Assembly: GCA_037441425.1 (NCBI GenBank)
Contig: JBBISF010000001.1
Location: forward strand, 632 to 64,631
Reading direction: 5' to 3'
Length of the DNA stretch: 64,000 nucleotides
From: Verrucomicrobiia bacterium
Lineage (GTDB): Bacteria; Verrucomicrobiota; Verrucomicrobiia; Palsa-1439
This document shows positions 2,633-37,729 of this stretch, in pieces (the stretch's first letter is position 1; every line of letters begins with the position of its first letter). The position numbers and the translations under genes were made by a program. A model generated the notes under the pieces. It did no database searches. It worked only from the letters and a program-made list of their open reading frames with translations, and was not told the origin of the DNA.

Positions 2633-3966
2633 AACTTGTAGATCACCGACAACTGCTCACGGAGGCTGTTGCCGCCGGCTTGCGCCTTATAACCCGTGCG
2701 CAAGCAGCTGATTTCGGCGCCGAGTGTCAGGCTGGCGTTGAGGGCGTACTGCGCGTTGCCGAAGACGAGTTCGTTGTAGGTCCGGCCCCCGGTGGCCAGC
2801 TCGTCATCGTTGGGGTCGTCACACCCGGCGCCGACGTTGAACTGCCACCTGGCATCCGGGGTCAGCGTGAGTGCGGCCCAGCCGCCACGGGCGCGAATGC
2901 CCCGGTAATCCGTGGCGCTGACCACGCGCACTCCCTGGCCGACGCCGCCGAGGTAGGCATCGAGGTTTTGCCCGACAAACCCTTCGGCTTGGAGCGCAAG
3001 CCAAGTGGTGACCGGCAACGTCAGGTCCACGTTCAACGACCAAGTGTCCACTTTCCGGTGGGCGTTGTATTCCTGCTGGCCCCAGTGGCCGGAAACACCG
3101 ACCGTGGTTGGTTTCTTCGTCAACAGGGGGAGACTGACGCTGGCCCGACCCTGAACCGTGGGGAATCCGACCTCCTGCCCCGTGTCGTAGTTGGCCCCGG
3201 TCCAGGAATTCGTGCAACCAATCGTGCGCGACGCCGCCAGTTCCAACTTGACGGTCAGATTGTCCGTCACCGGAAGCGATTCGGTCAGGCGGATCTGCGG
3301 GCGCCGGTAACCAATGTCGCCCTGCCACCAGCCGACGGTGTAATTGAGCGTGGGCGTCACCAGCGGCGAGATCACGTCGGCGGTCTGACCGGCCAAGGCG
3401 GTCAGATGCCATTGCGGCCACGTGGCCGTGACGTACGCCTGACGCAGCATCGGGTTGGGTTTGTTCTCCGCGCCACCTCCATAGAAGTCAATCTCGACGA
3501 GACCGGCGGTGGTCAGATCCGGACTGGAGGGACCTTTGAGTATGGCCCCCAACCGGGTTTGGTTGGCCGTTAGGTTGAACAGATCGCTGTGCCGGCCCCC
3601 TTCCTCGGATTCCACCCACCGCGCGTAATCGCCACTGGACGTGCGGGCGGAATCAAATGCCGCGTCGAGCTTGATGTAGCCGTAGAGTTGGAGATCCAGA
3701 CCGGAATGAACCGGTTGGCCTTTGATGGCCGCCAGCGTCTTGAGTTTGCCCACCTCTTCCTGAGTCAACGCCGGAATCGGCGCGGAAGCGCGTTGGTGGA
3801 GCAGTTGTTTGATTTCGCCCAACTCGCCCTCGACTTTCTCCAGGCGCTGACGGAGTTCGGCGTTCTCCTGTTTCAGCGCCTCCACCTCCGCAGGCGCGGA
3901 GTCACCCAACGCCTGCCGACCTGCGAGCAGTGCGAGAACGGACAAAACACGGAAGATATTTTTCAT
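2629..3966 (-). CDS. outer-membrane beta-barrel porin with N-terminal coiled coil (DcaP-like architecture)
   Basis: Signal peptide MKNIFRVLSVLALLAG and a coiled-coil segment (AEVEALKQENAELRQRLEKVEGELGEIKQLL). The body is Gly/Tyr/Thr-rich with alternating residues, and the terminus ...SVIYKF is aromatic as in OM barrels. Confidence 0.6.
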   Translation of the reverse strand: MKNIFRVLSVLALLAGRQALGDSAPAEVEALKQENAELRQRLEKVEGELGEIKQLLHQRASAPIPALTQEEVGKLKTLAAIKGQPVHSGLDLQLYGYIKLDAAFDSARTSSGDYARWVESEEGGRHSDLFNLTANQTRLGAILKGPSSPDLTTAGLVEIDFYGGGAENKPNPMLRQAYVTATWPQWHLTALAGQTADVISPLVTPTLNYTVGWWQGDIGYRRPQIRLTESLPVTDNLTVKLELAASRTIGCTNSWTGANYDTGQEVGFPTVQGRASVSLPLLTKKPTTVGVSGHWGQQEYNAHRKVDTWSLNVDLTLPVTTWLALQAEGFVGQNLDAYLGGVGQGVRVVSATDYRGIRARGGWAALTLTPDARWQFNVGAGCDDPNDDELATGGRTYNELVFGNAQYALNASLTLGAEISCLRTGYKAQAGGNSLREQLSVIYKF

Positions 3967-5017: not shown

Positions 5018-6342
5018 AATGGGCCGTCGCCATTCTTGTCGTTGCTCTGACCGCGAGCGTTCACGCCCAAGACGCACCCCGCGTTTTGACGCTGGATGAA
5101 GCCATCCGGCTCGCGCTGGCGAAGAACCCGGACCTGGCCACCGCCCAGCAACGCATTGCCGCCGCGCGCGCCGGACTGCGCCAAGCCGACGCCGCATTCT
5201 GGCCACAGGTGCGGGTCAGTGAAAGCTACGCCGCCAGCGACAATCCAGTGCAGGCGTTCATGATGACGCTCAACCAACGGGCGTTCAACTTCGGCGCGAA
5301 CTTCAACCACCCGGAAACCACCGACAATCTCAACACCAAGATCCTCGCCCAATGGTCGCTGTACGACGGCGGGCGCAATGTCGCCACCCGGCAAGCCGCG
5401 CGCCTCGGCGCGGAAGCCACCGAACAATCGCTCGCCGCGGTCCGCAACGACCTTGTCTTTGAAGTCACCCGCGCGTTCCACACCATCGGCAAAGCCCGGC
5501 AATTCATCGCGGCCGCCGCCGCCGCCGTGAACAGCATGGCATCCAACGTCAACGTGGCCAGCAACCGGTTCAGCCAGGGCGCGGTATTGAAGAGCGACCT
5601 GCTTGACGCCGAAGTCCGGCTCGCGGAAGCCCGCGAGAATCTCGTTCGCGCCCGCAACGCGCTGGCCCTTTCGGAAACGGTCTTCCGCAACGTGCTCGGC
5701 GTGGGGGAAGATGAAAATGTGACGGCGGGCGACGGTGGGTTTGGCTCCGACCAAGCCGTTCCGCCGGGCGGCGCGGCGGGACGCGCGCCCGCCAATGAAT
5801 TGGTTGCCCGCCCCGAACTGCTCGCCGCGCAAAAAGCGGTCGCGGCGGTGGAGAAACAAGTGCGGATTGCGGCCAGCGGCAATCGGCCGCATCTCCATGC
5901 GTTTGCGAGTTACGACCTCGACAGCGGTGATGCCCGGCATTATGCCAATAGCTGGGTCGGGGGCGTGAGTGTGGAGTTGAATGTGTTCGACGGTTTCCTC
6001 ACGCGCGGCCAAGTGGCCGAAGCCCGCGCCCATCTCGCCGCCACCCGGGAACAATTGCGCAAACTGGAGTTGGCGATTCAATTCGAAGTCAAACAAGCGC
6101 GGTTGAATCTCGACGAGGCTCAAGCCCGGTTGGAAACCACCACCCATGTCGTGGCCCAAGCCGAAGAAAGCCGGCAGATTACGAAGGACCGATACGCCAA
6201 CGGCCTCGCACTGCTCACCCAGTTGCTCGATGCCGAAACGGCGGTAACCTCCGCCCGGCAACGCCGCGCCGCGGCGAAAGCGGATTATTTGATCGCCCTA
6301 GCCGCCCTCGACCGGGCCTTGGGCAAATCGTGGAAGGAATGA
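5014..6342 (+). CDS. TolC-family outer membrane efflux protein
   Basis: Signal peptide MKWAVAILVVALTASVHAQ at in-frame ATG 5014. Two repeated OEP-type coiled-coil halves (LTLDEAIRLALAKNPDL..., ...AAAKADYLIALAALDRALG). Confidence 0.85.
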   Translation: MKWAVAILVVALTASVHAQDAPRVLTLDEAIRLALAKNPDLATAQQRIAAARAGLRQADAAFWPQVRVSESYAASDNPVQAFMMTLNQRAFNFGANFNHPETTDNLNTKILAQWSLYDGGRNVATRQAARLGAEATEQSLAAVRNDLVFEVTRAFHTIGKARQFIAAAAAAVNSMASNVNVASNRFSQGAVLKSDLLDAEVRLAEARENLVRARNALALSETVFRNVLGVGEDENVTAGDGGFGSDQAVPPGGAAGRAPANELVARPELLAAQKAVAAVEKQVRIAASGNRPHLHAFASYDLDSGDARHYANSWVGGVSVELNVFDGFLTRGQVAEARAHLAATREQLRKLELAIQFEVKQARLNLDEAQARLETTTHVVAQAEESRQITKDRYANGLALLTQLLDAETAVTSARQRRAAAKADYLIALAALDRALGKSWKE

Positions 6343-6345
6343 TGG

Positions 6346-7291
6346 ATGAAACGGACCTCTTGGATTTTTCCGGCGATCGCCCTCCCGTTGCTGTTCGGCT
6401 GCGGGCCGAAACAGGAACGTGCTGAAGACAACCGCCCGGCGGTCAAAGTGCAGACACTCACTGCCGCACTGAAAAGCGTGCCGGACATTCATGAGGTGGT
6501 CGGCACGGTGCGGCCCAAGCTTGCCGCGACGGTTTCCGCCAAGGTCATGGCGTCCATCGAACAAATTCCCGTCACCGCCGGGGACACTGTCACCGCGGGT
6601 CAGTTGTTGGCGAAGCTCGACGACCGGGACCTGCGCGCGGAATTCGAACGCGCCCAAGCCGACTACAACCGCTTCAAGGCGTTGCTCGACAAACAAGCCG
6701 CAACCCGCGCGGAGTTCGACGCCGTGCAATCGCGTTACCGGGTGGCCGAAACCGCACTGAGTTATGCGACGCTCACCGCCCCGTTCACCGGAGTTGTCGC
6801 GCAAAAGTTGTGCGATGCCGGTGATATGGCGGCTCCCGGCAAGCCGTTGTTCGTCATCGAGCAAGCAGGCGCGTTCCGGCTTGAAGCGCAGGTGCCGGAC
6901 CGGTTTGCCGAAGCGGTGGTGGTCGGCAAGAGCGCGAACGTCGTGGTGGATGCTACCGGGGAGAAATGCGCTGGCCCGATCGCGGAAGTCGTTCCGGCGG
7001 CGGATCCCGCCACCCGCAGCTTTCTCGTCAAAATTGATTTGGACTGCCGGCAACCGTTGCGGTCCGGCATGTTTGGCCGCGCGCAACTGCTCATCGGTGA
7101 ACGCACGGCCATATTCGTTCCGAAGTCGGCGCTGCACGAGCGGGGGCAGTTGACCTATCTGTTCGTGGTCACGGACGGCCAGGCGCAGATGCGGCTGGTG
7201 AAACCCGGCAAAGAATATCTCGACGCCGTCGAGATTTTATCCGGCTTGGAACCCGGCGAGAAAGTGGTCGTGCGTGCCGAAGCGGAACTGA

Positions 7292-7320: not shown

Positions 7321-10609
<3,289 letters not shown>

Positions 10610-27048: not shown

Positions 27049-27624
27049 CTAGTGCCCACCGGCCTTCGGTTCGACTGGCGTGCCGTCGCGGACCGGCGCG
27101 ATTGGCGTGCCGGGCGGCGGCGCGCCCTTGTACTTCCACTTCCAAATCGAGTCCGGCTGCACGCCGCCGAGTTCCAGCAGCTTCGGCTTGTTGAACCGCA
27201 TCTCCTCGCGCTTGTAGCCGGTGATCGCGAAAACGTTCTTCAGGAAGATCGCCTCCTCCGGGCAGACTTCCTCGCAGTAACCGCAGTAAATGCACCGCAG
27301 CATGTCGATGACAAATTCCTTCGGCTCTTTCTCGACGTTCGCGTCAAACGCCTGTTCCGCGCGAAAGCCCGGTGTGATGCGAATCGCCTTCGGCGGGCAC
27401 ACGAACTCGCAAAGCTGGCACGACACGCATTTCACCCGGCCGTCCGGGTCTTTCACCAACGTCGGCGCGCCCCGGTAATCCCCGAACAGCACCGGCTTTT
27501 CTTCCGGGTACATGCGCGTGAACTTCCGCCGTGGGATGTGCCGCAACGTCAGCCACAGCCCGTGCACGATCTGCGGGATGTATGACTTTTCCCAGAACGT
27601 CAATTTTGGCCGTTTAACTTGCAT
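27049..27624 (-). CDS. nuoI: NADH-quinone oxidoreductase subunit I (2x[4Fe-4S] ferredoxin-type)
   Basis: Two CxxCxxCxxxCP motifs ([24 protein letters not shown]). The likely start, [13 protein letters not shown] at 27624, shares one nt with the nuoH stop. Confidence 0.9.
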
Positions 27625-28655
27625 TACTTGGTCACCACCGCCAGCACCACGCCGGTGATCAAAATGTTCAGGATCGTCAATGGGATGAAAATCTTCCAAC
27701 CCAGCGCCATCAGTTGGTCATACCGGAACCGCGGCAACGTCCACCGCACCCAGATGAAGAAGAACAGGAAACAGAGTACTTTCGCCAGGAAAATTCCGAT
27801 TTGCGCCAGCCCGACGCCCAGCGTCTGCGCGGGCGCATTGAACGGCGCGAACGGCAACGACCACCCGCCGCAGAACAACGTCACCATCACCGCTGATGCC
27901 ACAAACATGTTGGCGTATTCGCCGAGGAAAAACATCGCGAACTTCATCGAACTGTACTCAGTGTGATACCCGCCCACCAGTTCCTGCTCCGCTTCCGGGA
28001 AATCGAACGGCAGCCGGTTGGTTTCCGCAAACGCGCTCACGAGGAAAATGAAGAACGACAGTGCGAGATACGGATAGCAGACGAAGGGCAGATGCCGTCC
28101 TTGGTACTCCACCACCTTCATCAGATTCAACGTGCCGGCCTGCATGAAGACCGGAACCACGCTTAAGCCGAGGCACACCTCGTAGGAAATCATCTGCGCG
28201 CTGGAGCGAATTCCGCCTAGGAATGGATACTTCGAATTGCTCGACCAGCCGGCCAAGACAATGCCGTACACGCCCAACGATGCGACGGCAAAAATAAACA
28301 GGATGCCCACGTTCAAATCCGCGATGACGCCGGTGATCGCGTGTCCGGCAATCGGCAGATTACTACCCCACGGAATAACCGCAATCGTGATCAAGGCCGG
28401 CACCATCGTCAGCGCCGGCGCCAGCGTGAAGTAGAACTTGTGCACGTGCCACGGCAACACGTCTTCCTTGAAAATGAACTTCAGCCCATCCGCCAACGGC
28501 TGCAACACGCCGAACGGCCCGACCCGATTCGGCCCGATCCGGTCCTGCATCCACGCGCAAATCCAGCGCTCGGCCATCACCGTGTACGCCACAATCCCCA
28601 GCATCACGCCGATCACGCAAACGATCTTAATCAAATGGATGATGAGCTCGTTCAT
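27624..28655 (-). CDS. nuoH: NADH-quinone oxidoreductase subunit H
   Basis: 343 aa. [24 protein letters not shown]-like N-terminus ([25 protein letters not shown]) and [15 protein letters not shown] motif. Confidence 0.93.
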   Translation of the reverse strand: [343 protein letters not shown]

Positions 28656-30289
28656 TTCTTATCAGCCACTAATCCACACGAATCTTTAAGAATTGGTGTT
28701 TCATTCGTGTCTATTTGTGGCTTCAATTCGATTCCTTGATCGCCAATCTTCGAAAGATTTAATCCCGCCAAGGCCGGCAACGACCGCGCCATGTCGGCAA
28801 AGACGTCTTCGATGGCGGCGTAGTTTGCGCCAAGCAGTGCGGTCAATGTCTGCCATTCCGGCCGCGCGATGCCCACCGGCTGGATTGCCGCTTGGAAACG
28901 CTGCAACCGGTTCTTCGCATTGATAAACGTACCGCGTTTCTCGGCAAAGGTCGCGCCCGGCAATACGTAGTGCGCGTGCTCAGTCACCTTCGTCGGCAAG
29001 GTGTCGATGACGACGAGCAGATCGAGTTTCTTCGCCAGCTCTTCATCCAAATCCTCGCCGAGCACGACGAGCGTCTTGATCTTGCCGGCTTTGATGCCTT
29101 CGAGAATCTCCGGCAACTTGCCGGTCGCACAACCGGTAAGTTTCGCGCCAGCAGTATTCGAATTCCGGTCGGCTTGTAACAGCTTGCCGTCGGCTTCGCC
29201 GGTATGGGGGACGATGTCCACTATGTCGCCGACGAGTTTCTTGAACAGGAAAAGTTCTTCGGTCGTGGCCCGGGCACTCGCGATGCCGGCGATGTTGCCG
29301 GCGGCTTTGAGCTTACCGGTGATTTGCCGGGTGGCTTCGAGCCAGGTGAGATTGACGCGCTCGCCGTAGACGGCGCTTTTGACGCTCGGCGAGGTGATGC
29401 GGCGCGGGTCGTTGATGAATTTGTAGTTGAGCCGGCCGTAGTCGCACATCCAGCATTGGTTGACGGCGTCGTTGTCGCGCGGCGTTTGCCGGTAGACGAC
29501 GCCTTCGCGCGACCAGAGGACGGTGTTGCAGCCGGTCGCGCAGTTCGGGCAGACCGACTTCGTCTCCTTCAAGAACCAGACGCGTTGCTCAAATCGAAAA
29601 TCCGTCTGCGTCAGCGCGCCGACGGGACAGATGTCGACGATGTTGAGATCGTAATTCGTTTTTGGCTCTTGGCCGGGGTAGCAGGTGAGCGTCGAGTAGC
29701 TGCCGCGGTTGACGAAGCCGAGGCAATCCTGCCCGGCCACTTCTTTCATGAAGCGGATGCAACGCGAGCAGAGGATGCAGCGTTCGTCGTCAAGCGTGAT
29801 TTTCGCGTTGAGCTTGGTCTGTTTCGGCTTGTGCACTTTTTCTTCGACGAACCGGCTCTGGCCTTTGCCGTAGTCGACGCTGAACTCTTGTAACCGGCAT
29901 TCCCCTGCTTGGTCGCAGATTGGGCAATCGAGCGGGTGATTGATGAGGAGAAATTCCATCACGCCTTCGCGCGCTTTGACGACTTTCGGCGAACGCGTGT
30001 GCACCACCATGCCGTCGGCGACCGGTTTGTTGCAGCCGATTTCCAACTTCGGCGCGAACATGATCACCGGCTTGCCGCCTGGCCCGATTTCCGGTTTCTT
30101 ATCTTTATCGAGCTTCGGCATGCCGACATCGCACAAGCACATGCGGCAATTGCCGGCGATGGTCAGCTTCGGGTGATAGCAATAATGCGGCACTTCGATG
30201 CCGGCGATTTTCGCCGCCTCGATGAGGTTCATCCCCTTCGGCGCGACGACTTCCTTGCCATCAATTGTCAGTTTTACAGTATCAGCCAT
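28652..30289 (-). CDS. nuoG: NADH-quinone oxidoreductase subunit G (short form)
   Basis: N-terminal 2Fe-2S and 4Fe-4S motifs (CYHPKLTIAGNCRMCLCDV, HPLDCPICDQAGECRLQ, CILCSRCIRF). The C-terminal tail ...KPQIDTNETPILKDSCGLVADKK is encoded by the repeat element, so the functional C-terminus is uncertain. Confidence 0.9.
   Translation of the reverse strand: MADTVKLTIDGKEVVAPKGMNLIEAAKIAGIEVPHYCYHPKLTIAGNCRMCLCDVGMPKLDKDKKPEIGPGGKPVIMFAPKLEIGCNKPVADGMVVHTRSPKVVKAREGVMEFLLINHPLDCPICDQAGECRLQEFSVDYGKGQSRFVEEKVHKPKQTKLNAKITLDDERCILCSRCIRFMKEVAGQDCLGFVNRGSYSTLTCYPGQEPKTNYDLNIVDICPVGALTQTDFRFEQRVWFLKETKSVCPNCATGCNTVLWSREGVVYRQTPRDNDAVNQCWMCDYGRLNYKFINDPRRITSPSVKSAVYGERVNLTWLEATRQITGKLKAAGNIAGIASARATTEELFLFKKLVGDIVDIVPHTGEADGKLLQADRNSNTAGAKLTGCATGKLPEILEGIKAGKIKTLVVLGEDLDEELAKKLDLLVVIDTLPTKVTEHAHYVLPGATFAEKRGTFINAKNRLQRFQAAIQPVGIARPEWQTLTALLGANYAAIEDVFADMARSLPALAGLNLSKIGDQGIELKPQIDTNETPILKDSCGLVADKK
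28664..28722. repeat. intact (empty) palindromic intercistronic element of the 'cacgaat' family at the nuoG/nuoH junction
   Basis: Arm agccactaatccacacgaat (28664..28683) pairs with attcgtgtctatttgtggct (28703..28722) at 17/20 positions around a 19-nt loop. It lies inside the last about 25 codons of the nuoG ORF. Confidence 0.75.
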
Positions 30290-30296
30290 GTTTTCT

Positions 30297-30316
30297 TAGC
30301 CACGAATTACACGAAT
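30297..30316. repeat. 'cacgaat' repeat arm (left or outer arm of the nuoF/nuoG junction)
   Basis: tagccacgaattacacgaat starts 8 nt from the nuoG ATG. Its inverted partner is at 31635..31665. Confidence 0.7.
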
Positions 30317-30372
30317 AGCCGAGTCCGACGAGACGCCGTCCTCGGCAAACACGAATCCACACAACCCAGCCT

Positions 30373-30403
30373 TGTCATTCTGAGCGAAGCGAAGAATCTC
30401 TGT
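30373..30403. repeat. left copy of a perfect 31-bp inverted repeat (REP-like, core tcattctgagcgaagcgaagaatctctg)
   Basis: Checked base by base. The reverse complement equals 31330..31360. Confidence 0.9.
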
Positions 30404-30423
30404 TGTCCGGTCTGCCGTTTCAT

Positions 30424-31293
30424 TCAACTCGCCTTGTACTCCTCAACAGCTTTTTCAACCAGTTCGGCGAGGAGCTTGTGGCACGGGTTGCAATGTTTTT
30501 GTTCGACCGCTACCCACAATCTCTCGTCATAGATCCCGGCTTCGATACCAGCCTCTTCAAATCGACCAACCCACTTCGCGCCGTCCGAAATATCAACGCG
30601 TAGCTCCAGCCATTTCTTCTTCGGTTTGAAGTCGATGAAGTTGCGGGCACGCAATCCGTCGTGCAACCCGATGTAATACCGGTTGAACTTCAACTGAAGC
30701 TTTGGATCGGCCGTTTGGTTGATGAGATCGAGGAATGTATCAGCCAACTTGACAGTCTCAGGCGTCGCTCTTGTGTTCCAGTAGTCTCGACCAACCGGCT
30801 TGTTCCCCTCGCCTTCATCGTCCTGCCTCAGAGCAACACGGTCGAGGACGCGTACGAAGTCCAACACGATTTGGTCGCCAACCTTGAGAGCATTCAGTTG
30901 TATCGCGATGAACGGAATCGTCCCGGAGAAGAGAGCAAGGATGTTCAGAAACCGGGTAGTGATGTCTTCGGCGACTAATACCGCGCAGTGGTCGTAGCCG
31001 GGGTATCTACGCCTTTCGATGTCCCAGTACTCAATGCACCGAATGATGTGGCTCTCGTCAGTCTGCCCAAGCATCAACTCAACTTCGTACCGGCAATTTT
31101 CTTCACGACTAAACAACAGTAGATCTAGCCGCCCAGCTTTGTCCTGCTTGCGCTCTTGATCAATGACCTCAACGTCTCCCAAACCGAGAATGGTAGGGTC
31201 TTCATAGATGCGGTCCTGAAGCCATCGCTCGGTGAACTCGCCGTGATTCTTCAACTCAATCGGTTCAGGCTTGGTGTATCGGAGAGCAGCCAT
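30424..31293 (-). CDS. hypothetical protein with an N-terminal NucS/DUF91-like PD-(D/E)xK-fold domain
   Basis: 289 aa, AAGGAG RBS at 31301..31306. EDPTILGLGDVEVIDQERKQDKAGRLDLLLFSREENCRYEVELMLGQ resembles the D...E.K nuclease core of NucS-like proteins, but the Lys position reads ELM. The C-terminal half has a YYIGL...F..FKPKKKWLELRV pattern of unknown function. Confidence 0.45.
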   Translation of the reverse strand: MAALRYTKPEPIELKNHGEFTERWLQDRIYEDPTILGLGDVEVIDQERKQDKAGRLDLLLFSREENCRYEVELMLGQTDESHIIRCIEYWDIERRRYPGYDHCAVLVAEDITTRFLNILALFSGTIPFIAIQLNALKVGDQIVLDFVRVLDRVALRQDDEGEGNKPVGRDYWNTRATPETVKLADTFLDLINQTADPKLQLKFNRYYIGLHDGLRARNFIDFKPKKKWLELRVDISDGAKWVGRFEEAGIEAGIYDERLWVAVEQKHCNPCHKLLAELVEKAVEEYKAS

Positions 31294-31329
31294 GTCTTAC
31301 CTCCTTGTTCCTTTCCTGCGACTGGTACG

Positions 31330-31360
31330 ACAGAGATTCTTCGCTTCGCTCAGAATGACA
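31330..31360. repeat. right copy of the perfect 31-bp inverted repeat
   Basis: acagagattcttcgcttcgctcagaatgaca is the exact reverse complement of 30373..30403. Confidence 0.9.
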
Positions 31361-31532
31361 GGGCGAGGGAGGAGGGGCGGCACGATAGCGTATCCGCTGA
31401 CGTAGCTGCCGTTCGTCGTGTGCGTCCACGTCCATTGCACGTCTTCGTTCGGCGCGAGCATGACGCCTTGAACCGCTGGCGCCCCCGGCAGGGCTGATTG
31501 CGGTGCTAAGACCCAACGAATGCCGGCTTTCC

Positions 31533-31622
31533 TAGCCACTGATTCACACAGATGGGACACGGATCGGCGCTTCGCAGAAGCGCCGCTACACCGTCTGTGT
31601 TTATCTGTGTTCATCTGTGGCT
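31533..31622. repeat. palindromic element, 'cacagat' variant of the cacgaat family, with an inner hairpin
   Basis: tagccactgattcacacagat (31533..31553) pairs with atctgtgttcatctgtggct (31603..31622) at about 17/21 positions. An inner 7-bp hairpin ggcgctt-cgcag-aagcgcc lies at 31566..31584. Confidence 0.65.
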
Positions 31623-31634
31623 TCAATGCCGGCC

Positions 31635-31665
31635 ATTCGTGTTTATTCGTGTTCATTCGTGGCTA
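31635..31665. repeat. 'cacgaat' repeat arm (right or outer arm of the nuoF/nuoG junction)
   Basis: attcgtgtttattcgtgttcattcgtggcta. It encodes the last residues and the stop of nuoEF (..SSHE, TGA at 31653..31655). Confidence 0.75.
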
Positions 31666-33404
31666 CTGCCGTTGCCGTTCTTCTTGCAGGCCGCCTCGAA
31701 TTCGCTGCGGTAATTTTTTAGGAACGCTTTGACCGGCCACGCGGCGGCTTCGCCGAGGGGGCAGATCGTTTTGCCGTCGATATTGTCGGCGACTTCGAAG
31801 AGGAGATCGACGTCCTCCGGGCGGCCGTGGCCGTCTTTGATGCGGTGGAGCATTTTCTCCATCCAGAGCGTGCCTTCCCGGCACGGCGTGCATTGACCGC
31901 AACTTTCGTGGGCGTAAAATTGGGAGACGTTGAGCGTGGTGTCGACGATGTTGACATCTTCGGTGAGGACGACGATGCCGCCGCTACCGGCCATCGTGCC
32001 GGCTTTGCGGAGGCTTTCGAAATCGAGGGGGACGTCGAGATTATTCGCAGGCATTACCGGCATTGAACTCCCACCGGGAATGACGCCTTTGATTTTCTTG
32101 CCGTCTTTGACGCCGCCGCAAACGTCTTCGATGAGTTGGCGCATCGTGAGTTTGCCCATCTCGAATTCGTAGTAGCCGGGGCGTTTGACTGGACCGCTGA
32201 CGCAGACGAGTCGCGTGCCGGTCGAGCCGGGGACACCCATCGCTTTGAACCACGCCGCGCCGTTTTTGACGATGTGCGGGATGTTTGAAAGAGTCTCGAC
32301 GTTGTTGACGACGGTCGGGCAGCCGAACAAACCGACGATGGCCGGGAACGGCGGTTTGATGCGCGGGTAAGCGCGTTTGCCTTCGAGCGATTCGATGAGG
32401 CCGGTCTCTTCGCCGCAAATGTACGCGCCCGCGCCGCGGTGGACGTAGATCTCGGCGGTCTTGCCGACGTAACCTTTGGCGCGCGCTTCTTCTATGGCTC
32501 CCAGAAGAATCTGCGCGCCGACCGGCATCTCACCGCGAATATATATGTAGGCCACCTTCGCGCCGGTCGCGTAACAGGAGATGAGGATGCCTTCGATGAG
32601 CTGGTGCGGATCGTAATTGATCAGTTGCCGGTCCTTGAAAGTTCCCGGCTCAGACTCGTCGGCGTTGCAAACGAGGTACGTCGGCTTGCCGGTATTCTTC
32701 GCGAGGAAACTCCATTTGAGACCGCATGGAAAACCGGCGCCGCCGCGTCCGCGAATCTCGCTGTTTTTGACTTCGTTGACGATGTCCTCGGGCTTCATCG
32801 TCAGCGCTTTCGCCAACGCCTGATAGCCGCCTTCCTTCTCGTAATCGGTCAGCGAGCCCGTGTAGCCGGGTTTGGTGATGTTCGCGAGCAGGATGCGTTT
32901 TTCGAGCGGATGCGCCGGTAACGGCTTGGCGACCGGCTCTTTCGCGAGCGTGCCGGTGCGCTTGATGTCGGCGATGATCTGGTCGAGGCGTTCCGGCGTC
33001 ATCCTGTCGTAATGCTCGTCATTGATCATCATCGCCGGGCCGGTGCCGCACGAGGCGAGACATTCAACGGTCGAGACTTCGAAGTCCGGGCCGAGATTTT
33101 TCAGGCGTTCCAACAGTTTCGCGCTCCCGGCCAGTTGACAGGAGAGTGTCCGGCAAATCTTGATGTGAAACCTGGCGCGCGGCTTCTGCGTGAACATCGG
33201 GTAGAACGTGACCACTTCCCAGACATTGATCGGCTGGAGGCCGAGTTTGCCGGCAATCCATTCGACTTGTTCCGCGCCGAGACAGCCGCAGTGATCCTGA
33301 ATCAAATGACAGAGCCACAACACCGCCGCCCGTTTCGTCGGGTAATGCGTGATGATCTCGTCGATGTGACGTTCGAGGTCGGCAGGGATGATTAAGTTAG
33401 CCAC
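31653..33404 (-). CDS. nuoEF: fused NADH-quinone oxidoreductase subunits E and F
   Basis: The N-terminal about 150 aa is NuoE-like (YPTKRAAVLWLCHLIQ, ICRTLSCQLAG, CLASCGTGPAMMIND). The rest is NuoF (GRGGAGFPCGLKW, ESCGQCTPCREG). It is one 583-aa frame with a GTG start at 33404 inside the repeat. Confidence 0.9.
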   Translation of the reverse strand: MANLIIPADLERHIDEIITHYPTKRAAVLWLCHLIQDHCGCLGAEQVEWIAGKLGLQPINVWEVVTFYPMFTQKPRARFHIKICRTLSCQLAGSAKLLERLKNLGPDFEVSTVECLASCGTGPAMMINDEHYDRMTPERLDQIIADIKRTGTLAKEPVAKPLPAHPLEKRILLANITKPGYTGSLTDYEKEGGYQALAKALTMKPEDIVNEVKNSEIRGRGGAGFPCGLKWSFLAKNTGKPTYLVCNADESEPGTFKDRQLINYDPHQLIEGILISCYATGAKVAYIYIRGEMPVGAQILLGAIEEARAKGYVGKTAEIYVHRGAGAYICGEETGLIESLEGKRAYPRIKPPFPAIVGLFGCPTVVNNVETLSNIPHIVKNGAAWFKAMGVPGSTGTRLVCVSGPVKRPGYYEFEMGKLTMRQLIEDVCGGVKDGKKIKGVIPGGSSMPVMPANNLDVPLDFESLRKAGTMAGSGGIVVLTEDVNIVDTTLNVSQFYAHESCGQCTPCREGTLWMEKMLHRIKDGHGRPEDVDLLFEVADNIDGKTICPLGEAAAWPVKAFLKNYRSEFEAACKKNGNGSSHE

Positions 33405-33428
33405 GAATGCACACGAATGTTCACGAAT
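33398..33428. repeat. left 31-nt 'cacgaat' arm flanking the GxxExxY gene
   Basis: tagccacgaatgcacacgaatgttcacgaat matches the reverse complement of 33808..33838 at 28/31 positions. Confidence 0.85.
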
Positions 33429-33453
33429 CGGCTGGTCATTACATGACCAGCCG
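33429..33453. other. 11-bp perfect stem-loop containing the GxxExxY stop codon
   Basis: cggctggtcat-tac-atgaccagccg, immediately adjacent to the left arm. Confidence 0.7.
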
Positions 33454-33819
33454 TTTGAATTCGCACTTCGTCCTTCCGAAGTTGGTCAACACGCCGACCT
33501 TCAGCCCGGTTGCCTTCAAATAGTTTAGCAACTGCGCTTCGTGCTGTTTGTTGTATGTTTGCTCGGCTTTCAATTCTACGATCACTTTGTCATCAACTAT
33601 CAAATCGGCCACGTAGTCACCCACGATGGCTTCTTTGTACTTCACTTTCAGCGCGTGCTGCGCTTCCACTTTCACGCCGCGTTTGGCCAACTCGATCAAC
33701 AGTGCGTTCTCATACACCTTCTCTAAAAATCCGTATCCCAAAACATTGTGCACCTCGAACGCCGCTCCCACAATTTGACCGACCAAATCGCCATGAATCA
33801 GTTCCTTATTCGTGTCCAT
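33439..33819 (-). CDS. GxxExxY-family protein (PD-(D/E)xK nuclease fold)
   Basis: 126 aa. IVGAAFEVHNVLGYGFLEKVYENAL..EL (the GxxExxY motif), DLIVDDKVIVELKA (D..ExK core), AQLLNYLKATGLKVGVLTNFG. Confidence 0.88.
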   Translation of the reverse strand: MDTNKELIHGDLVGQIVGAAFEVHNVLGYGFLEKVYENALLIELAKRGVKVEAQHALKVKYKEAIVGDYVADLIVDDKVIVELKAEQTYNKQHEAQLLNYLKATGLKVGVLTNFGRTKCEFKRLVM

Positions 33820-33838
33820 TCGTGTGGATTCGTGGCTA
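33808..33838. repeat. right 31-nt 'cacgaat' arm flanking the GxxExxY gene
   Basis: attcgtgtccattcgtgtggattcgtggcta. It contains the GxxExxY ATG (33819) and the nuoD stop TAG (33836..33838). Confidence 0.85.
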
Positions 33839-35074
33839 CCGGTCGCACTCTCCCATCACGAAATCGATGCTCGACAAGATTGCCACCATATCGCTGACCA
33901 TGTGGCCGCGGGAAACAACCGGGAGCATCTGCAGATTGACAAACGACGGCGCGCGGATCTTCAACCGGTGCGGGGTGCCGCCACCTTTGCTGATAATGTA
34001 AAAACCGAGTTCGCCTTTCGGGTTTTCCGCAGAGAAATAAACTTCGCCGGGGGGGGCGTTGATGCCTTGGGTGACCGCGATGAAGTGGTGGATGAGTTCC
34101 TCCATCTTCGTCAGGACGGCTTTCTTTTCCGGCAACACAATCTTCGCTTCGGGCGCGTTGACCGGGCCGTCCGGCAGCTTGTCCAACGCCTGCTGGAGGA
34201 TCCGAACGCTCTGACGCATTTCTTCCATCCGCACCAAATACCGATCGTAGCAATCACCCACGGCGCCGACCGGCACATCAAAATCAAAATTCTCGTACCC
34301 GCCGTAGGGATGCGTTTTCCGAAGGTCCCAATCCACACCCGACCCGCGCAAGCATGGGCCCGTTACACCGAGATCAATGGCGTCTTCTTTGCTGAGGACG
34401 CCGATCTCCTGGGTGCGCTCAATGAAAATCTTGTTGCGGCTCAGCAGCTTGTCCACCTCGTCAATCGTGGCCGGAAACTCTTTCAAGAATTGCCGCACCA
34501 TCGGCAGAAATGTTGCCGGCATGTCGTTGGCGAGACCACCGATGCGCGTGTAGCTCGTCGTGAACCGCGCGCCGCTGATGCACTCGGCGAGGTCGTAAAT
34601 CTTCTCGCGTTCCCGGAACGTGTAGAGGAACACCGTCATTGCCCCCACGTCCATGCCGAAGCAGCCAATGCCGAGCAGATGCGAGCTGATGCGCGCCAGC
34701 TCCGAGCAAATCACGCGGATATATTTGCAGCGTGGCGGCACGTCAATGCCCAGGAGTTTTTCGACGGCGTAGGCGTAGGCGACATTGTTGGCGAGCGGGG
34801 CGATGTAGTCCAACCGGTCGGTGTAGGGAATGAACTGCGTGTACGTCATGTTCTCGGCGATTTTCTCGTCGCCGCGATGCAGATAACCGACATCCGGCCA
34901 TGCGTTGAGAATCTCCTCGCCGTCCAACTCCAGCACCACGCGCAACACCCCGTGCGTGCTGGGATGCTGCGGCCCCATGTTGATGATCATCTTCTCGCCG
35001 TGCAATTCTTCTTCCATCATCTGCTGCGCGCGCGCGGCGGAATCAATCAATTCCATTTCTTGCGTGGTCGCCAT
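33836..35074 (-). CDS. nuoD: NADH-quinone oxidoreductase subunit D
   Basis: 412 aa. INMGPQHPSTHGVLR, LHRGDEKI and C-terminal ..DFVMGECDR. Confidence 0.94.
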   Translation of the reverse strand: MATTQEMELIDSAARAQQMMEEELHGEKMIINMGPQHPSTHGVLRVVLELDGEEILNAWPDVGYLHRGDEKIAENMTYTQFIPYTDRLDYIAPLANNVAYAYAVEKLLGIDVPPRCKYIRVICSELARISSHLLGIGCFGMDVGAMTVFLYTFREREKIYDLAECISGARFTTSYTRIGGLANDMPATFLPMVRQFLKEFPATIDEVDKLLSRNKIFIERTQEIGVLSKEDAIDLGVTGPCLRGSGVDWDLRKTHPYGGYENFDFDVPVGAVGDCYDRYLVRMEEMRQSVRILQQALDKLPDGPVNAPEAKIVLPEKKAVLTKMEELIHHFIAVTQGINAPPGEVYFSAENPKGELGFYIISKGGGTPHRLKIRAPSFVNLQMLPVVSRGHMVSDMVAILSSIDFVMGECDR

Positions 35075-35077
35075 CGC

Positions 35078-35719
35078 TTAAACCGACTCCTTCTTCGTCG
35101 GCGTCTTCAACTTGTCCTGCTGCTCCGCAATCGTGTCGTATTGCCGGGGTTCTTTGCGTAATGAACTGCGTGTGCCGGAGCCCGCCACGAACGGCCCGCC
35201 CAACATCGGTGCCGTTTCGACTATTCCGGCATTGACTGCTGTTTCCGGTAACTCCGTCGGCACGCCGGCCAACGGGAAATCTTTGCGCAACGGGTGATGG
35301 GGATACCCGTCCCACATCAGAATCCGCTTCAAATTCGGATGCTGGCGGAAGCGGATGCCGTACATGTCGAACGCCTCGCGCTCCTGCCAGTCCGCGCCGC
35401 GCCACACGGCCGTCACGGAGTCCACAACCAAATCGTCTTCCGGCACGGTGATCTTCAATCGCAACCAGCACCGGTGCGTGAACGAATACAGCAGGTAATC
35501 CACCTCGTAACGCGGGTCTTCACCGTAGTTATCCACACCGGCCAGATCGGTCAGCATGTCGAATCCGCATTCCTTTTTCAGAAACTGGCAGACCGGCGCG
35601 ATTTGCTCGCGCGTCACACTGACCGTGACTTCGCCGCGAAATTCGCTCGGCTCGCCAATGGCGGCGGCGAATTGGGCTTTCAGTTTCCCGACGGCTTCCT
35701 GCGGCGTCATACCTTCCAA
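35078..35719 (-). CDS. nuoC: NADH-quinone oxidoreductase subunit C
   Basis: 213 aa. [12 protein letters not shown]-type motif ([14 protein letters not shown]) and PLRKDFPL. Confidence 0.9.
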
Positions 35720-36273
35720 CCCTCAAACTTCCCGGCATACTCCCCGCGGACGATGACCGGGCCTTGGACCGGTTGCGCTGTCGGCGCCTGATGCGCGCCG
35801 CTTTTCATACCCGCCAGGGCACTTTCCGCTTGGATCTTCCGTTGAATCGCCATCAATCCTTCAAGCAACGCTTCCGGCCGCGGCGGGCAACCGGAGATGT
35901 ACACGTCCACCGGCAGAAAATGATCCACGCCTTGCACCACCGCGTAACTGCGATACATCCCACCCGAACTGGCGCACGCGCCCATCGCGATGCACCATTT
36001 CGGATTTGGCATCTGGTCCCACACGCGTTTGACCGTCCCGGCCATCTTGTACACGCATGTGCCGGCCACGATCATCAAATCGGCTTGCCGGGGCGAGAAC
36101 CGCATCACTTCCGCGCCGAATCGGGCAATATCAAACCGGCTCGCGCCCACCGCCATCAACTCGATCGCGCAACACGCCAACCCCATCGGCATCGGCCAAC
36201 AGGAATTCTTGCGCACCCAGTCAATCGCCGCGTCCACGCGCGTCACCATCACATCGGCGGTTTCAACCTTCAT
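35707..36273 (-). CDS. nuoB: NADH-quinone oxidoreductase subunit B
   Basis: The start MKVETADV at 36273 overlaps the nuoA stop (ATGA). [16 protein letters not shown] and GCPPRPE cluster N2 motifs. Confidence 0.92.
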
Positions 36274-36674
36274 GATGGTCGCCTCGGTTTCTTGGGGGAC
36301 CAGTCGAGCGCGCCCTTCTTCCAAGCGTAGATGTGGCCGACTTCCAAAATCAGCAGAAACACCGCCGCGCCGGCCAGAATTTTCCAGCCCATTTCATGGA
36401 GCAAGTCGCGATACACCGCCGCCCACCCGAGGAAGAACACGACTTCGATGTCGAACAAGATGAAGAGCATCGCGATCAGGTAGAACTTCACGCTGAACCG
36501 CGTGTGCGCCTCGGTCATGGCCGGCATGCCGCACTCGTACGCGCTGTCCTTGACCGGATCGTGGACGCGTTTCTTGCCGATCACATACGGCAACACCAAG
36601 TTGGTTCCGGCGAACCCGATGGCCACCAGCAACAACAATCCAACCGGCACATATTGATAAAGTTGCTCGCTCAT
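36270..36674 (-). CDS. nuoA: NADH-quinone oxidoreductase subunit A
   Basis: 134 aa and three TM helices. YECG..P and FDIEVVFF motifs. First gene of the operon. Confidence 0.9.
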
Positions 36675-36709
36675 ACCTGCGGACCCGCCCTGCGACTTCG
36701 GCGGGGCTT

Positions 36710-36725
36710 TGTGACAAAATTCACT
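36710..36725. promoter_or_regulatory. CRP-like palindrome in the nuoA / midA-like divergent region
   Basis: TGTGAcaaaatTCACt matches TGTGA-N6-TCACA at 9/10 half-site positions. It lies 36 nt from the nuoA ATG. Confidence 0.2.
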
Positions 36726-37729
36726 TGAAAACTACCGGGATTGCCCGTGCCATGCAAGAGCTATTTCGCTATCCTAGGGCCGTGACCGGCAACCCAGTTT
36801 TGATCGAGGAAATCCGCCGTGCAATCCGCGCAGCGGGCGGGCGCATCACCTTTGAGAGGTTCATGGAGTTGGCATTGTATCACCCGCAGCACGGCTACTA
36901 CACGACCGGGAGCCAACGCATTGGGAAAGCCGGTGATTTTTTCACCAGTGTCAGCGTCGGGCCGTTGTTCGGACGGATTCTGGCCCGGCAATTTCAGCGG
37001 TGGGGTGTGAAAGAAGTGGTGGAATTCGGCGGGCACCGCGGCCAGTTGCGGGACGACGTGCTGGCGGTCGCGTCCGATCTCGCGTATCGCGTCGTGGAGG
37101 TGGGTGATCCATTACCGGAGCGCATCACCGGCTGCGTATTTTCCAACGAGTTTCTCGACGCGTTGCCGGTGCATCGGCTTTGCGGTGACCGTGAAGTGTA
37201 TGTCAACGCACGCCTTGAGGAAGAACTGAGGCCGTTGTCGGATCACCGATTGCCCCGGTTGCCGCAAGGCTACCGGTCGGAAATCAATCTGCGCGCGTTG
37301 GACTGGCTGACGAACATCGCCGGCCGACTCACCGGGTCGGCCTACATCCTGACGATTGATTATGGGTTTGAACGCGCCGCGTATTTCGCGCCGCATCACC
37401 AGGACGGTCATTTGCAGTGCTACTACCGGCACACGAAGAACACCAACCCGTACCAGCATATCGGCGAACAGGACATCACGGCGCACGTGGAATTCACTTC
37501 GCTCATCGAACATGGCCGGCAGCTCGGGTTGGAGCCGGTGTTGTTCACTGACCAAGCGCACTTTCTCCTGCAAGCCGGTGAGGCGGAGATTACCGAGATC
37601 GTGGCCCGCACCGCCGGTCAACTCAGCCGGGACCGCGCCGCGCTTCATCAACTCCTGCATTCCTCGATGGGCCACGCGTTCAGGGTTTTGGTCCAACAAA
37701 AGCCGCCGGCGGCTGGTAACCCACAATAA
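36725..37729 (+). CDS. MidA/NDUFAF7-family (DUF185) class I SAM-dependent methyltransferase
   Basis: ITFERFMELALYHPQHGYY, GDFFTSVSVGPLFG, SNEFLDALPVHRL, TIDYGF and DITAHVEFTSL follow the Methyltransf_28 pattern. The track start is TTG at 36725, and the first in-frame ATG is at 36752. Confidence 0.8.
   Translation: MKTTGIARAMQELFRYPRAVTGNPVLIEEIRRAIRAAGGRITFERFMELALYHPQHGYYTTGSQRIGKAGDFFTSVSVGPLFGRILARQFQRWGVKEVVEFGGHRGQLRDDVLAVASDLAYRVVEVGDPLPERITGCVFSNEFLDALPVHRLCGDREVYVNARLEEELRPLSDHRLPRLPQGYRSEINLRALDWLTNIAGRLTGSAYILTIDYGFERAAYFAPHHQDGHLQCYYRHTKNTNPYQHIGEQDITAHVEFTSLIEHGRQLGLEPVLFTDQAHFLLQAGEAEITEIVARTAGQLSRDRAALHQLLHSSMGHAFRVLVQQKPPAAGNPQ

Follow-up and report, generated by a model that had tools for sequence, protein, structure and literature searches.

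The closest described counterparts of the element reported here are the intervening sequences (IVSs) of 23S rRNA that bear an open reading frame (ORF), and the REPtrons, which are built on repetitive extragenic palindromes (REPs). The 23S rRNA IVS of Coxiella is 428–444 nt long and has a 28-bp stem of terminal repeats whose loop carries a single ORF of about 14 kDa; its GC content is below that of the host, and it lies inside a host transcription unit, occurs sporadically and bears signs of horizontal transfer (PMC4990558). In Coxiella and Leptospira, ORF-bearing 23S IVSs are cleaved by RNase III midway along their stem (PMC4990558). REPs are short extragenic palindromes that occur mainly between co-directional genes and are probably transcribed, and in a REPtron the gene for a REP-associated tyrosine transposase (RAYT) lies between inverted REPs of which many empty copies exist (PMC3733652). 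Here we describe a 441-bp cassette from a Verrucomicrobiia bacterium (assembly GCA_037441425.1, contig JBBISF010000001.1), found in a stretch of 64,000 nt that we call the window. The cassette encloses a gene of the GxxExxY family (PF13366, also called PDDEXK_3) between two palindromic arms and is inserted in the respiratory complex I (nuo) operon, between nuoD and a nuoE–nuoF fusion gene (nuoEF). On balance we lean towards reading it as a palindrome-bounded selfish cassette that resembles the ORF-bearing IVSs and differs from them in location and in cargo.

The cassette lies on the minus strand (33398..33838) and consists, in the direction of transcription, of an upstream arm (33808..33838), the GxxExxY ORF (33439..33819), a hairpin at the stop codon of that ORF (33429..33453) and a downstream arm (33398..33428). 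In the transcription sense, the upstream arm reads TAGC-CACGAAT-CCA-CACGAAT-GGA-CACGAAT and the downstream arm ATTCGTG-AAC-ATTCGTG-TGC-ATTCGTG-GCTA, that is, three CACGAAT heptamers per arm at a 10-nt period. The arms are 31 nt each, stand 379 nt apart and are complementary at 28 of 31 positions (90%), all three mismatches falling in the 3-nt spacers between the heptamers. They also hold codons of three genes. The upstream arm contains the TAG stop of nuoD (33836–33838), which the element supplies, and the ATG of the cassette gene (33817–33819), and the downstream arm contains the predicted GTG start of nuoEF (33402–33404), which has moved into it. Both host genes are on the same strand, nuoD (Complex1_49kDa) at 33836..35074 and nuoEF at 31653..33404. 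The insert has a GC content of 48–51%, against about 56–62% in the flanks and 60.5% in the window.

Much of this anatomy had been described in an earlier sequence-only reading of the window, and its coordinates for the ORF, the arms and the three codons hold, as does the AT-richer composition; the similarity of the arms survives alignment, with compensatory changes. Its account of the stop-codon hairpin stands in part. The stem is a perfect 11 bp (−19.6 kcal/mol, z −7), but the TAA stop does not lie wholly in the loop, because only two of its bases overlap the 3-nt loop. The hairpin is kept in the nuo-linked lineage, with G–U pairs in one relative (L002), and is specific to that lineage: across the family, stop codons show a median folding energy of −5.3 kcal/mol against −5.4 kcal/mol for internal controls. 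A two-unit CACGAAT pattern has eight matches in the window, where 0.03 are expected, and all eight are inside the nuo operon. The other roughly 58 kb hold no periodic arms of this kind, and the GxxExxY gene is the only one of its family in the window. Searches against Rfam, of the whole window at gathering thresholds and of 27500–36800 at E-value thresholds, returned nothing relevant.

The terminal inverted repeats fold the element into a long stem whose loop holds a single small ORF, which is the layout of an IVS, and a predicted RNA fold of 453 nt pairs both arms in the minimum-free-energy and the centroid structure (z = −6.3). In length (441 nt), arms (31 nt), ORF (126 aa) and GC content (48–51% against 60%), the cassette resembles the ORF-bearing IVSs. 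It differs from them in its position, an mRNA operon junction between nuoD and nuoEF and not helix 9, 25 or 45 of 23S rRNA; in its cargo, a PD-(D/E)xK protein (PF13366) and not a four-helix-bundle protein of the S23p/Avd-like kind (PF05635); and in its arms, which are arrays of heptamer units.

The 441-bp segment is an insertion, because close relatives keep an uninterrupted ATGA stop/start overlap at nuoD/nuoEF. A scan of metagenome contigs with nuoD gave 80 loci, and the state of the junction was read among those with 80–86% nuoD identity. The overlap is bare in L218, L220, L222, L225 and the more distant L227 (...GACCGATGACGATCCC...), with the TGA of nuoD overlapping the ATG of nuoEF; the sequence of this empty, uninserted junction is GAGTGCGACCGATGACGATCCC. 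The insertion of a gene or element, as the earlier reading had proposed, is directly shown by these relatives. Junctions filled with a GxxExxY gene occur in the window and in L002, L006, L010, L133, L219, L293, L294 and L297. Filled and empty alleles place the insertion point between ...GACCG and ATGAC, and ATGAC still stands to the right of the arm in L010 and L297. The first bases of the insert finish the last arginine codon of nuoD and supply its TAG stop. The former ATG of nuoEF is decayed in the window, L002, L133 and L219, where the gene begins at the GTG of the arm; in the empty-site relatives, it starts at the ATG of the ATGA overlap. Comparison of empty and filled nuoD/nuoEF junctions gave no target-site duplication. 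That close relatives differ in whether one exact site is filled, and that the empty allele is intact, is the comparative pattern of a homing endonuclease gene. In related Verrucomicrobiia assemblies, the closest protein homologues that were looked up (79–88% identical) lie at this very junction. Three more from long contigs (P0029, P0031 and P0038; 79–80% identical) again lie at nuoD/nuoEF and in no different context, and between-site transposition within the clade is therefore not demonstrable.

Two types of cassette occupy this junction. Type A has CACGAAT arms and a protein that begins M[DNT]TNKELIHG or MTELIHG (window, L002, L006, L010 and L293), and type B has CACAGAT or CACGGAT arms and a protein that begins MN[DE]FQHGE (L133, L219, L294 and L297). 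The hosts of L010 and L133 share 88% nucleotide identity in nuoD and 84% in nuoEF, but their cassettes are of different types and only 72% identical. The cassettes of L133 and L219 are 79% identical between hosts at 80% (nuoD) and 70% (nuoEF), and those of the window and L002 are 88% identical between flanks at 80% and 81%. L219, which is filled, and L220, which has the bare ATGA, share 88% nuoD nucleotide identity; L006, also filled, and L216, which has the empty hairpin of another repeat family, share 90% nuoD identity. Filled and empty junctions are scattered across a neighbour-joining nuoD tree. The tree and the pairwise identities together point to the cassette having been repeatedly gained, lost or replaced through recombination, and they are not to be read as a count of events.

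Arms of this kind are not confined to the window with armless homologues elsewhere, an outcome that would have counted against the earlier interpretation; they are present at most other sites sampled in the family. A scan with the GxxExxY profile, taking one genome per species, gave 80 loci, 78 of them with enough flanking sequence, from Verrucomicrobiota, Planctomycetota, Desulfobacterota, Acidobacteriota, Bacteroidota/Ignavibacteria, Chloroflexota, Bacillota, NC10, Zixibacteria, Methanoperedens and other archaea, and further groups. The best inverted repeat in the flanks has a median score of 38, against 16 in shifted controls, and 83% of the 78 genes exceed the 95th percentile of the controls. 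An independent pairing of units by regular expression recovers arms at 65 of the 80 loci (81%). The arms consist of 2–4 units at a period of about 10 nt with the consensus CRCNGAY (CACGAAT, CACAGAT, CGCAGAT, CACGGAT, CGCGGAT, CACAGAC and CGCCGAT were seen), and their outer ends are typically TTAGCC, AACC or AATAGAAC. They lie tight against the gene, the median distance being 11 nt to its start and 11 nt to its stop. Where the neighbours are co-directional, 45 of 50 GxxExxY genes point the same way. nuoD and nuoEF adjoin the gene at only 2 of the 80 loci, both from Verrucomicrobiia, and the other contexts are unrelated.

Among pairs of genes from different phyla, those with the same arm unit share 55.8% protein identity and those with different units 51.9%, a difference reached in 0 of 2,000 permutations; arms and gene therefore tend to travel together. 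The association also appears in loci picked solely for nuoD, 372 kb of which contain three arm pairs: a GxxExxY gene lies inside two of them, and the third, on the same contig, forms an empty hairpin with the same type of unit. The flanks of 61 loci give no sign of a target-site duplication (the best direct repeat averages 2.25 nt, against 2.24 nt when pairings are shuffled), and no rRNA or other RNA family in Rfam adjoins the gene at 20 family loci. One member of the family, L156 (Desulfobacterales), has three tandem copies of the three-unit CACGAAT arm module on each side of its GxxExxY gene (2856–2969 and 3375–3485), which gives an inverted repeat of about 110 nt; arms can thus be amplified as blocks.

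The encoded protein has a minimal PD-(D/E)xK nuclease core. The sequence-only reading had offered family assignment by profile as a check, and the ORF matches well above the cut-offs: PF13366 with 144 bits against 22 (residues 11–123 of 126, E = 3e-42) and TIGR04256 (GxxExxY) with 146.7 bits against 35 (E = 3e-43). Residues G30, E33, Y36, D72, E82 and K84 are invariant among 14 homologues, and the GxxExxY motif and the PD-(D/E)xK catalytic set are intact. An AlphaFold2 model (mean predicted local distance difference test score, 90) has an alpha-alpha-beta-beta-beta-alpha-beta-beta topology, the minimal restriction-endonuclease-like core. Its best Foldseek matches, all with modest scores, are Cas4 SSO0001, lambda exonuclease, the Holliday-junction resolvase Hjc and tRNA-splicing endonucleases; these are generic PD-(D/E)xK neighbours, and therefore no specific function is transferable. 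PADLOC gave only weak matches to Cas4, none of them convincing, PHROGs gave no match, and a sequence search of the PDB found no solved structure for the protein. The family is large (18,182 clusters at 50% identity, E ≤ 1e-3), and many of its representatives are tandem two-domain fusions of about 260 aa (for example, P0121–P0125; 250–270 aa), which suggests that the single-domain proteins may act as dimers. Mobility or function of GxxExxY genes had been called undescribed, in agreement with the searchable literature, in which we found no description of the arms or of their association with GxxExxY genes; nor is there an Rfam family.

Both the gene and its arms are constrained. Among the nine orthologous cassettes, the median ratio of non-synonymous to synonymous divergence (dN/dS) is 0.08, and the gene is under strong purifying selection. 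Synonymous divergence (dS) is mostly above 1 or saturated, and the gene has therefore long been resident at nuoD/nuoEF. The heptamers are 97% identical in the five orthologous elements of type A, against 53% at synonymous third positions, and 92% against 61% in type B; the spacers are about 70% identical across orthologues. Between types A and B both arms have changed together, with changes on both sides at 6 of 31 stem pairs. The covariation score of the arms is 0.166, against 0.098 in shuffles (0 of 500 as high), and pairing collapses once the register is slid. Covariation and heptamer conservation together indicate that the arms are constrained in their pairing as well as in their unit sequence.

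The cassette has features in common with several other classes of element. Like a REPtron, it is a single gene between inverted palindromic copies in a co-directional setting, with many empty copies of the palindrome. Unlike one, it carries PF13366 and not a Y1 (HUH) transposase, and it lacks the unpaired GTAG/CGTC tag of a REP: its TAGCC pairs with GGCTA, and other members end in AACC or AATAGAAC. Genomes hold many GxxExxY paralogues, and RAYT genes are usually single-copy. We considered and rejected an identity with REP/RAYT on the grounds of the paired tag and the cargo; no search was made for a RAYT elsewhere in the genome. The Correia elements of Neisseria and the mycobacterial MIRU have terminal inverted repeats, lie between cistrons and rebuild the stop and start codons of their neighbours, as the cassette does. 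Correia hairpins are cut by RNase III in mRNAs and have a TA target duplication, and neither Correia elements nor MIRU carry a gene; the cassette encloses a nuclease gene and has no detectable duplication.

With free-standing homing endonuclease genes, including the PD-(D/E)xK enzyme I-Ssp6803I, the cassette shares presence or absence at the same site, a tree that is incongruent with the flanks, the absence of duplication and little harm to the host genes. It has no intron or intein context, however, and inverted arms of unit repeats are not a feature of homing genes. Like integron cassettes and pdif modules, it is promoterless, co-oriented and single-gene, with imperfect palindromic borders, and relatives have toxin–antitoxin cargo nearby. 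In an integron cassette the palindrome lies downstream of the ORF, whereas here it is split around it; the border has no attC organisation by inspection and ends in GTTAGCC and not GTTRRRY, and the cassette has no 28-nt XerC/XerD site of the kind that marks a pdif module. Inspection of the sites thus ruled out integron attC and Xer/pdif identities, no search for an integrase having been made. Terminal inverted repeats (TIRs) are shared with TIR transposons and miniature inverted-repeat transposable elements (MITEs), but the cassette shows no target duplication, and its only ORF is a 126-aa PD-(D/E)xK core with no recognised transposase.

Other kinds of insert also occupy nuoD/nuoEF in relatives. 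Empty hairpins of other repeat families are found there: L216 and L223 have CACAGAG units, L217 has GTTAAAA units, and L213 has the GTCATTCTGAGYG family, which also flanks a 289-aa ORF of the window; L224 has a 609-nt insert with an unrelated ORF. No relative examined has an empty CACGAAT or CACAGAT hairpin at this junction. The hairpin-only inserts (L216, L217, L223 and L213) are bordered by ATGA or GTGA to their left and by ATGA to their right, which could be a 4-bp target duplication or could reflect selection for a stop and a start; this contrasts with the GxxExxY cassette, which has no duplication. Palindromes of other tandem units (GAAATCC, AAAATTC, GTTAAAA and CACAGAG) occur at nuoD/nuoE in other lineages, at about 3800–3990 in L266, after nuoD in L237, L243, L246, L216 and L223, and at 3745–3835 in L217, and tandem-unit hairpins seem to be a general theme that extends beyond CRCNGAY units. 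In more distant relatives (nuoD about 67–70% identical), one of two conserved small ORFs lies between nuoD and nuoE without arms (L242, L245, L275 and L292; L251, L252, L276, L280 and L287). One is about 120 aa (MADQIVWCDIPV...) and by eye perhaps VOC/glyoxalase-like; the other, of about 100–120 aa with a signal-peptide-like start and a cysteine, may by eye be a small lipoprotein.

The nuoEF/nuoG junction of the window is likewise bracketed by CACGAAT arms, which the sequence-only reading had not mentioned. The outer upstream arm, with three CACGAAT units, lies at the end of nuoEF (31635..31661), and the outer downstream arm just before the ATG of nuoG (30296..30356), with ATTCGTG at 30350–56, 30310–16 and 30301–07 followed by GGCTAA; these and the features below are all on the minus strand. 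Nested within the junction are an empty CACAGAT-unit palindrome with an inner GC hairpin (31534..31622; −45 kcal/mol, z −5.6) and the 289-aa ORF (30424..31293), which stands between the two copies of a perfect 31-nt inverted repeat belonging to a third family, TGTCATTCTGAGCGAAGCGAAGAATCTCTGT (30373–30403 and 31330–31360). The 289-aa ORF has no Pfam, PHROGs or PADLOC match; its GRLDLLL...YEVELM stretch has a PD-(D/E)xK-like appearance. The TGTCATTCTGAGCGAAGCGAAGAATCTCTGT family also forms the empty palindrome at nuoD/nuoEF in L213 and occurs as a short single copy in L294 and L002. A block of about 160–200 nt without a long ORF (..ccggcattcgttgggt..gtgcaatggacgtggacgcacac..ggcagctacgtcagcgg..; about 31360–31520 in the window) is conserved with several relatives (L002, about 9650–9830; L293, L294 and L297, before nuoG) inside this otherwise variable junction and could be a small ORF or an RNA. 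Further along the operon, between nuoG (28652..30289) and nuoH (27624..28655), an empty CACGAAT-type hairpin (28664..28722; −20.5 kcal/mol, z −4.8) had been taken for an uninterrupted copy of the cassette palindrome; a copy is present, but it is degenerate and not intact, with two units pairing around a 19-nt loop.

In relatives, the cargo between similar outer arms at nuoEF/nuoG varies from the 289-aa ORF to a Phd/PIN toxin–antitoxin pair and a multi-gene insert that includes Peptidase_C14. The left and right arms are sometimes mismatched in type (CACGAAT and ATCTGTG in L294), an empty hairpin of three units closes around a 4-nt loop in L006, and L010 has an ORF6N gene without recognisable arms. 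Several of these inserts between nuoEF and nuoG look selfish, namely the Phd/PIN, ORF6N and caspase-like Peptidase_C14 genes (L293, L294 and L297, about 6200–7060; L010, 8210–8773; L002, 8155–10598). Between nuoC and nuoD, relatives have an N6/N4 DNA methylase with a HinfI-type restriction enzyme (L293, 406–2701), and L219 has an empty hairpin.

Arms without the gene are also common in viral contigs. Exact three-unit patterns of CACGAAT and of CACAGAT each occur in more than 120 IMG/VR contigs, where we estimate that fewer than one is expected. About one-third of the viral CACGAAT matches have a partner arm, mostly forming empty hairpins with loops of about 10–70 nt; the roughly two-thirds of three-unit matches without a partner may include some tandem repeats in coding sequence. 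A minority of the viral arm pairs closely bracket some other single gene, among them genes for a DNA methylase, for a radical-SAM-like protein and for proteins of unknown kind, and no viral arm pair examined encloses a GxxExxY gene.

With the probability somewhat on its side, we picture a selfish, IVS-like cassette within an mRNA operon that is expressed by read-through. No σ70-type promoter match was found within 33000–34300, and the cassette would be transcribed from the nuo promoter. In the transcript, the arms would pair with each other and form a stem of about 30 bp around the cassette. By analogy with the IVSs, this stem might be a substrate for RNase III, which would part the cassette mRNA from the nuo mRNA and limit the harm to the operon. 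The encoded nuclease would cleave alleles in which the target or hairpin is empty, and these would be repaired from a filled copy, with the arms or flanks serving as homology, such that spread and maintenance would be homing-like, by means of the nuclease, and not classical transposition. Nuclease-assisted homing is the mode of movement that we favour, but we rate neither this step nor the RNase III step as better than even.

Several observations pull the other way. Arms of the same kinds exist as empty hairpins and, in viral contigs, enclose unrelated genes; this type of hairpin is therefore independent of GxxExxY genes, which keeps alive a model in which the arms are a landing pad. Across the arms of 67 loci, an RNA-strand-specific test counted 101 G–U pairs against 78 A–C mismatches (p = 0.10), which is not significant, and a role of the arms at the DNA level, as a cruciform or a protein-binding array, is therefore equally open. 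Heptamers so strongly conserved beyond the needs of pairing agree better with recognition by a sequence-specific binding protein than with an RNA stem whose role is purely structural, and processing by RNase III is drawn by analogy only. The neighbour-joining nuoD tree has no bootstrap support, and recombination among relatives, without active homing, could produce the patchy pattern. Long residence, as judged from saturated dS, is also compatible with domestication, and the one survey found to list GxxExxY/PF13366, on PD-(D/E)XK proteins, gives the function of the family as unknown (PMC3424549).

The sequence-only reading had left two possibilities side by side, the first being a compact element, roughly 440 bp long, that has terminal inverted repeats and a nuclease-fold cargo, and the second a gene inserted into the loop of an intercistronic hairpin. 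The compact element fits nuoD/nuoEF better, because no empty CACGAAT or CACAGAT hairpin is found there and gene and arms are paired at 81–83% of the 78–80 loci, with a unit type that tracks the protein type and arms at a median of 11 nt from the ends of the ORF. The insertion of a gene into a hairpin finds some support elsewhere, at nuoEF/nuoG, from the empty hairpin with a 4-nt loop in L006 and the varied cargo between similar outer arms. In its general form, the second possibility holds that intercistronic hairpins of a REP- or MITE-like kind, serving as RNA stabilisers or processing sites, were there before the gene and that their loops are insertion hot spots, with GxxExxY the commonest cargo and not the agent. 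We consider this unlikely. It would account for the empty hairpins at nuoG/nuoH and nuoEF/nuoG of the window, at nuoEF/nuoG of L006 and at nuoC/nuoD of L219, for the viral arms that are mostly empty or flank other genes, and for the several unrelated palindrome families at nuoD/nuoEF in relatives. It sits poorly with an empty nuoD/nuoEF state that is a bare ATGA, with arms that stand so tight against most GxxExxY genes and with a unit type that co-varies with the protein type, both across phyla and at nuoD/nuoEF; and the mismatched arms at nuoEF/nuoG of L294 suggest a chimaera of several elements and not one filled hairpin.

If the arms were instead the terminal inverted repeats of a DNA transposon, with phased binding sites, the GxxExxY protein would be the transposase or a part of it and the empty hairpins would be MITE-like deletions. 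The heptamer period of 10 bp, which is helical, sequence conservation beyond pairing, the co-inheritance of gene and arms across phyla and the existence of empty derivatives all accord with such an element, as do the two-domain fusions, which suggest a dimer that acts on symmetric ends. We nevertheless regard it as quite unlikely, given the lack of a target-site duplication over 61 loci, the residence at one orthologous site until dS saturates and the loops of 4–6 nt in some empty hairpins, which look like true hairpins and not deletion remnants; moreover, we know of no transposase that is a PD-(D/E)xK core of about 120 aa alone, as TnsA needs TnsB. Domestication, in which the gene would have a host role (defence, or RNA or DNA housekeeping tied to nuo), the arms would be regulatory RNA for translation and mobility would be irrelevant today, seems to us very improbable. 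Purifying selection and long residence at nuoD/nuoEF in many lineages would suit it, and the start codons of the cassette gene and nuoEF lie inside the arms, whose pairing could gate translation; there is also the weak sequence similarity to Cas4. Yet close relatives lack the gene altogether, members in other phyla lie in unrelated contexts, no PADLOC match is convincing, and the nuo operon of relatives gathers restriction–modification and toxin–antitoxin modules, which suggests a sink for selfish genes.

A more far-reaching interpretation, which we put forward only tentatively and think rather doubtful, is that GxxExxY genes, together with their CRCNGAY arms, are autonomous mobile elements of bacteria and archaea, a class that would be extremely abundant and until now unrecognised. 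A dimer of the PD-(D/E)xK nuclease of about 120 aa would then recognise its own phased heptamer arrays, or the hairpin or cruciform that these form, and the element would place copies of itself in intercistronic sites or in the loops of hairpins, with no target duplication. The empty unit-repeat hairpins that are so widespread would be non-autonomous derivatives or targets.

PF13366/GxxExxY is one of the large nuclease-fold families without a known function. The tight architecture shared by about four-fifths of the 78–80 loci sampled, together with gain and loss polymorphism at one site, makes of this annotation label a mobile-element hypothesis that can be tested, as its substrates are defined, namely the arms and the empty ATGA junction. 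The origin of rRNA IVSs has been debated for decades, and the cassette extends their layout to protein-coding operons. With nuclease, restriction–modification and toxin–antitoxin genes lying between the nuo genes of relatives, an essential respiratory operon can be a sink for selfish cassettes.

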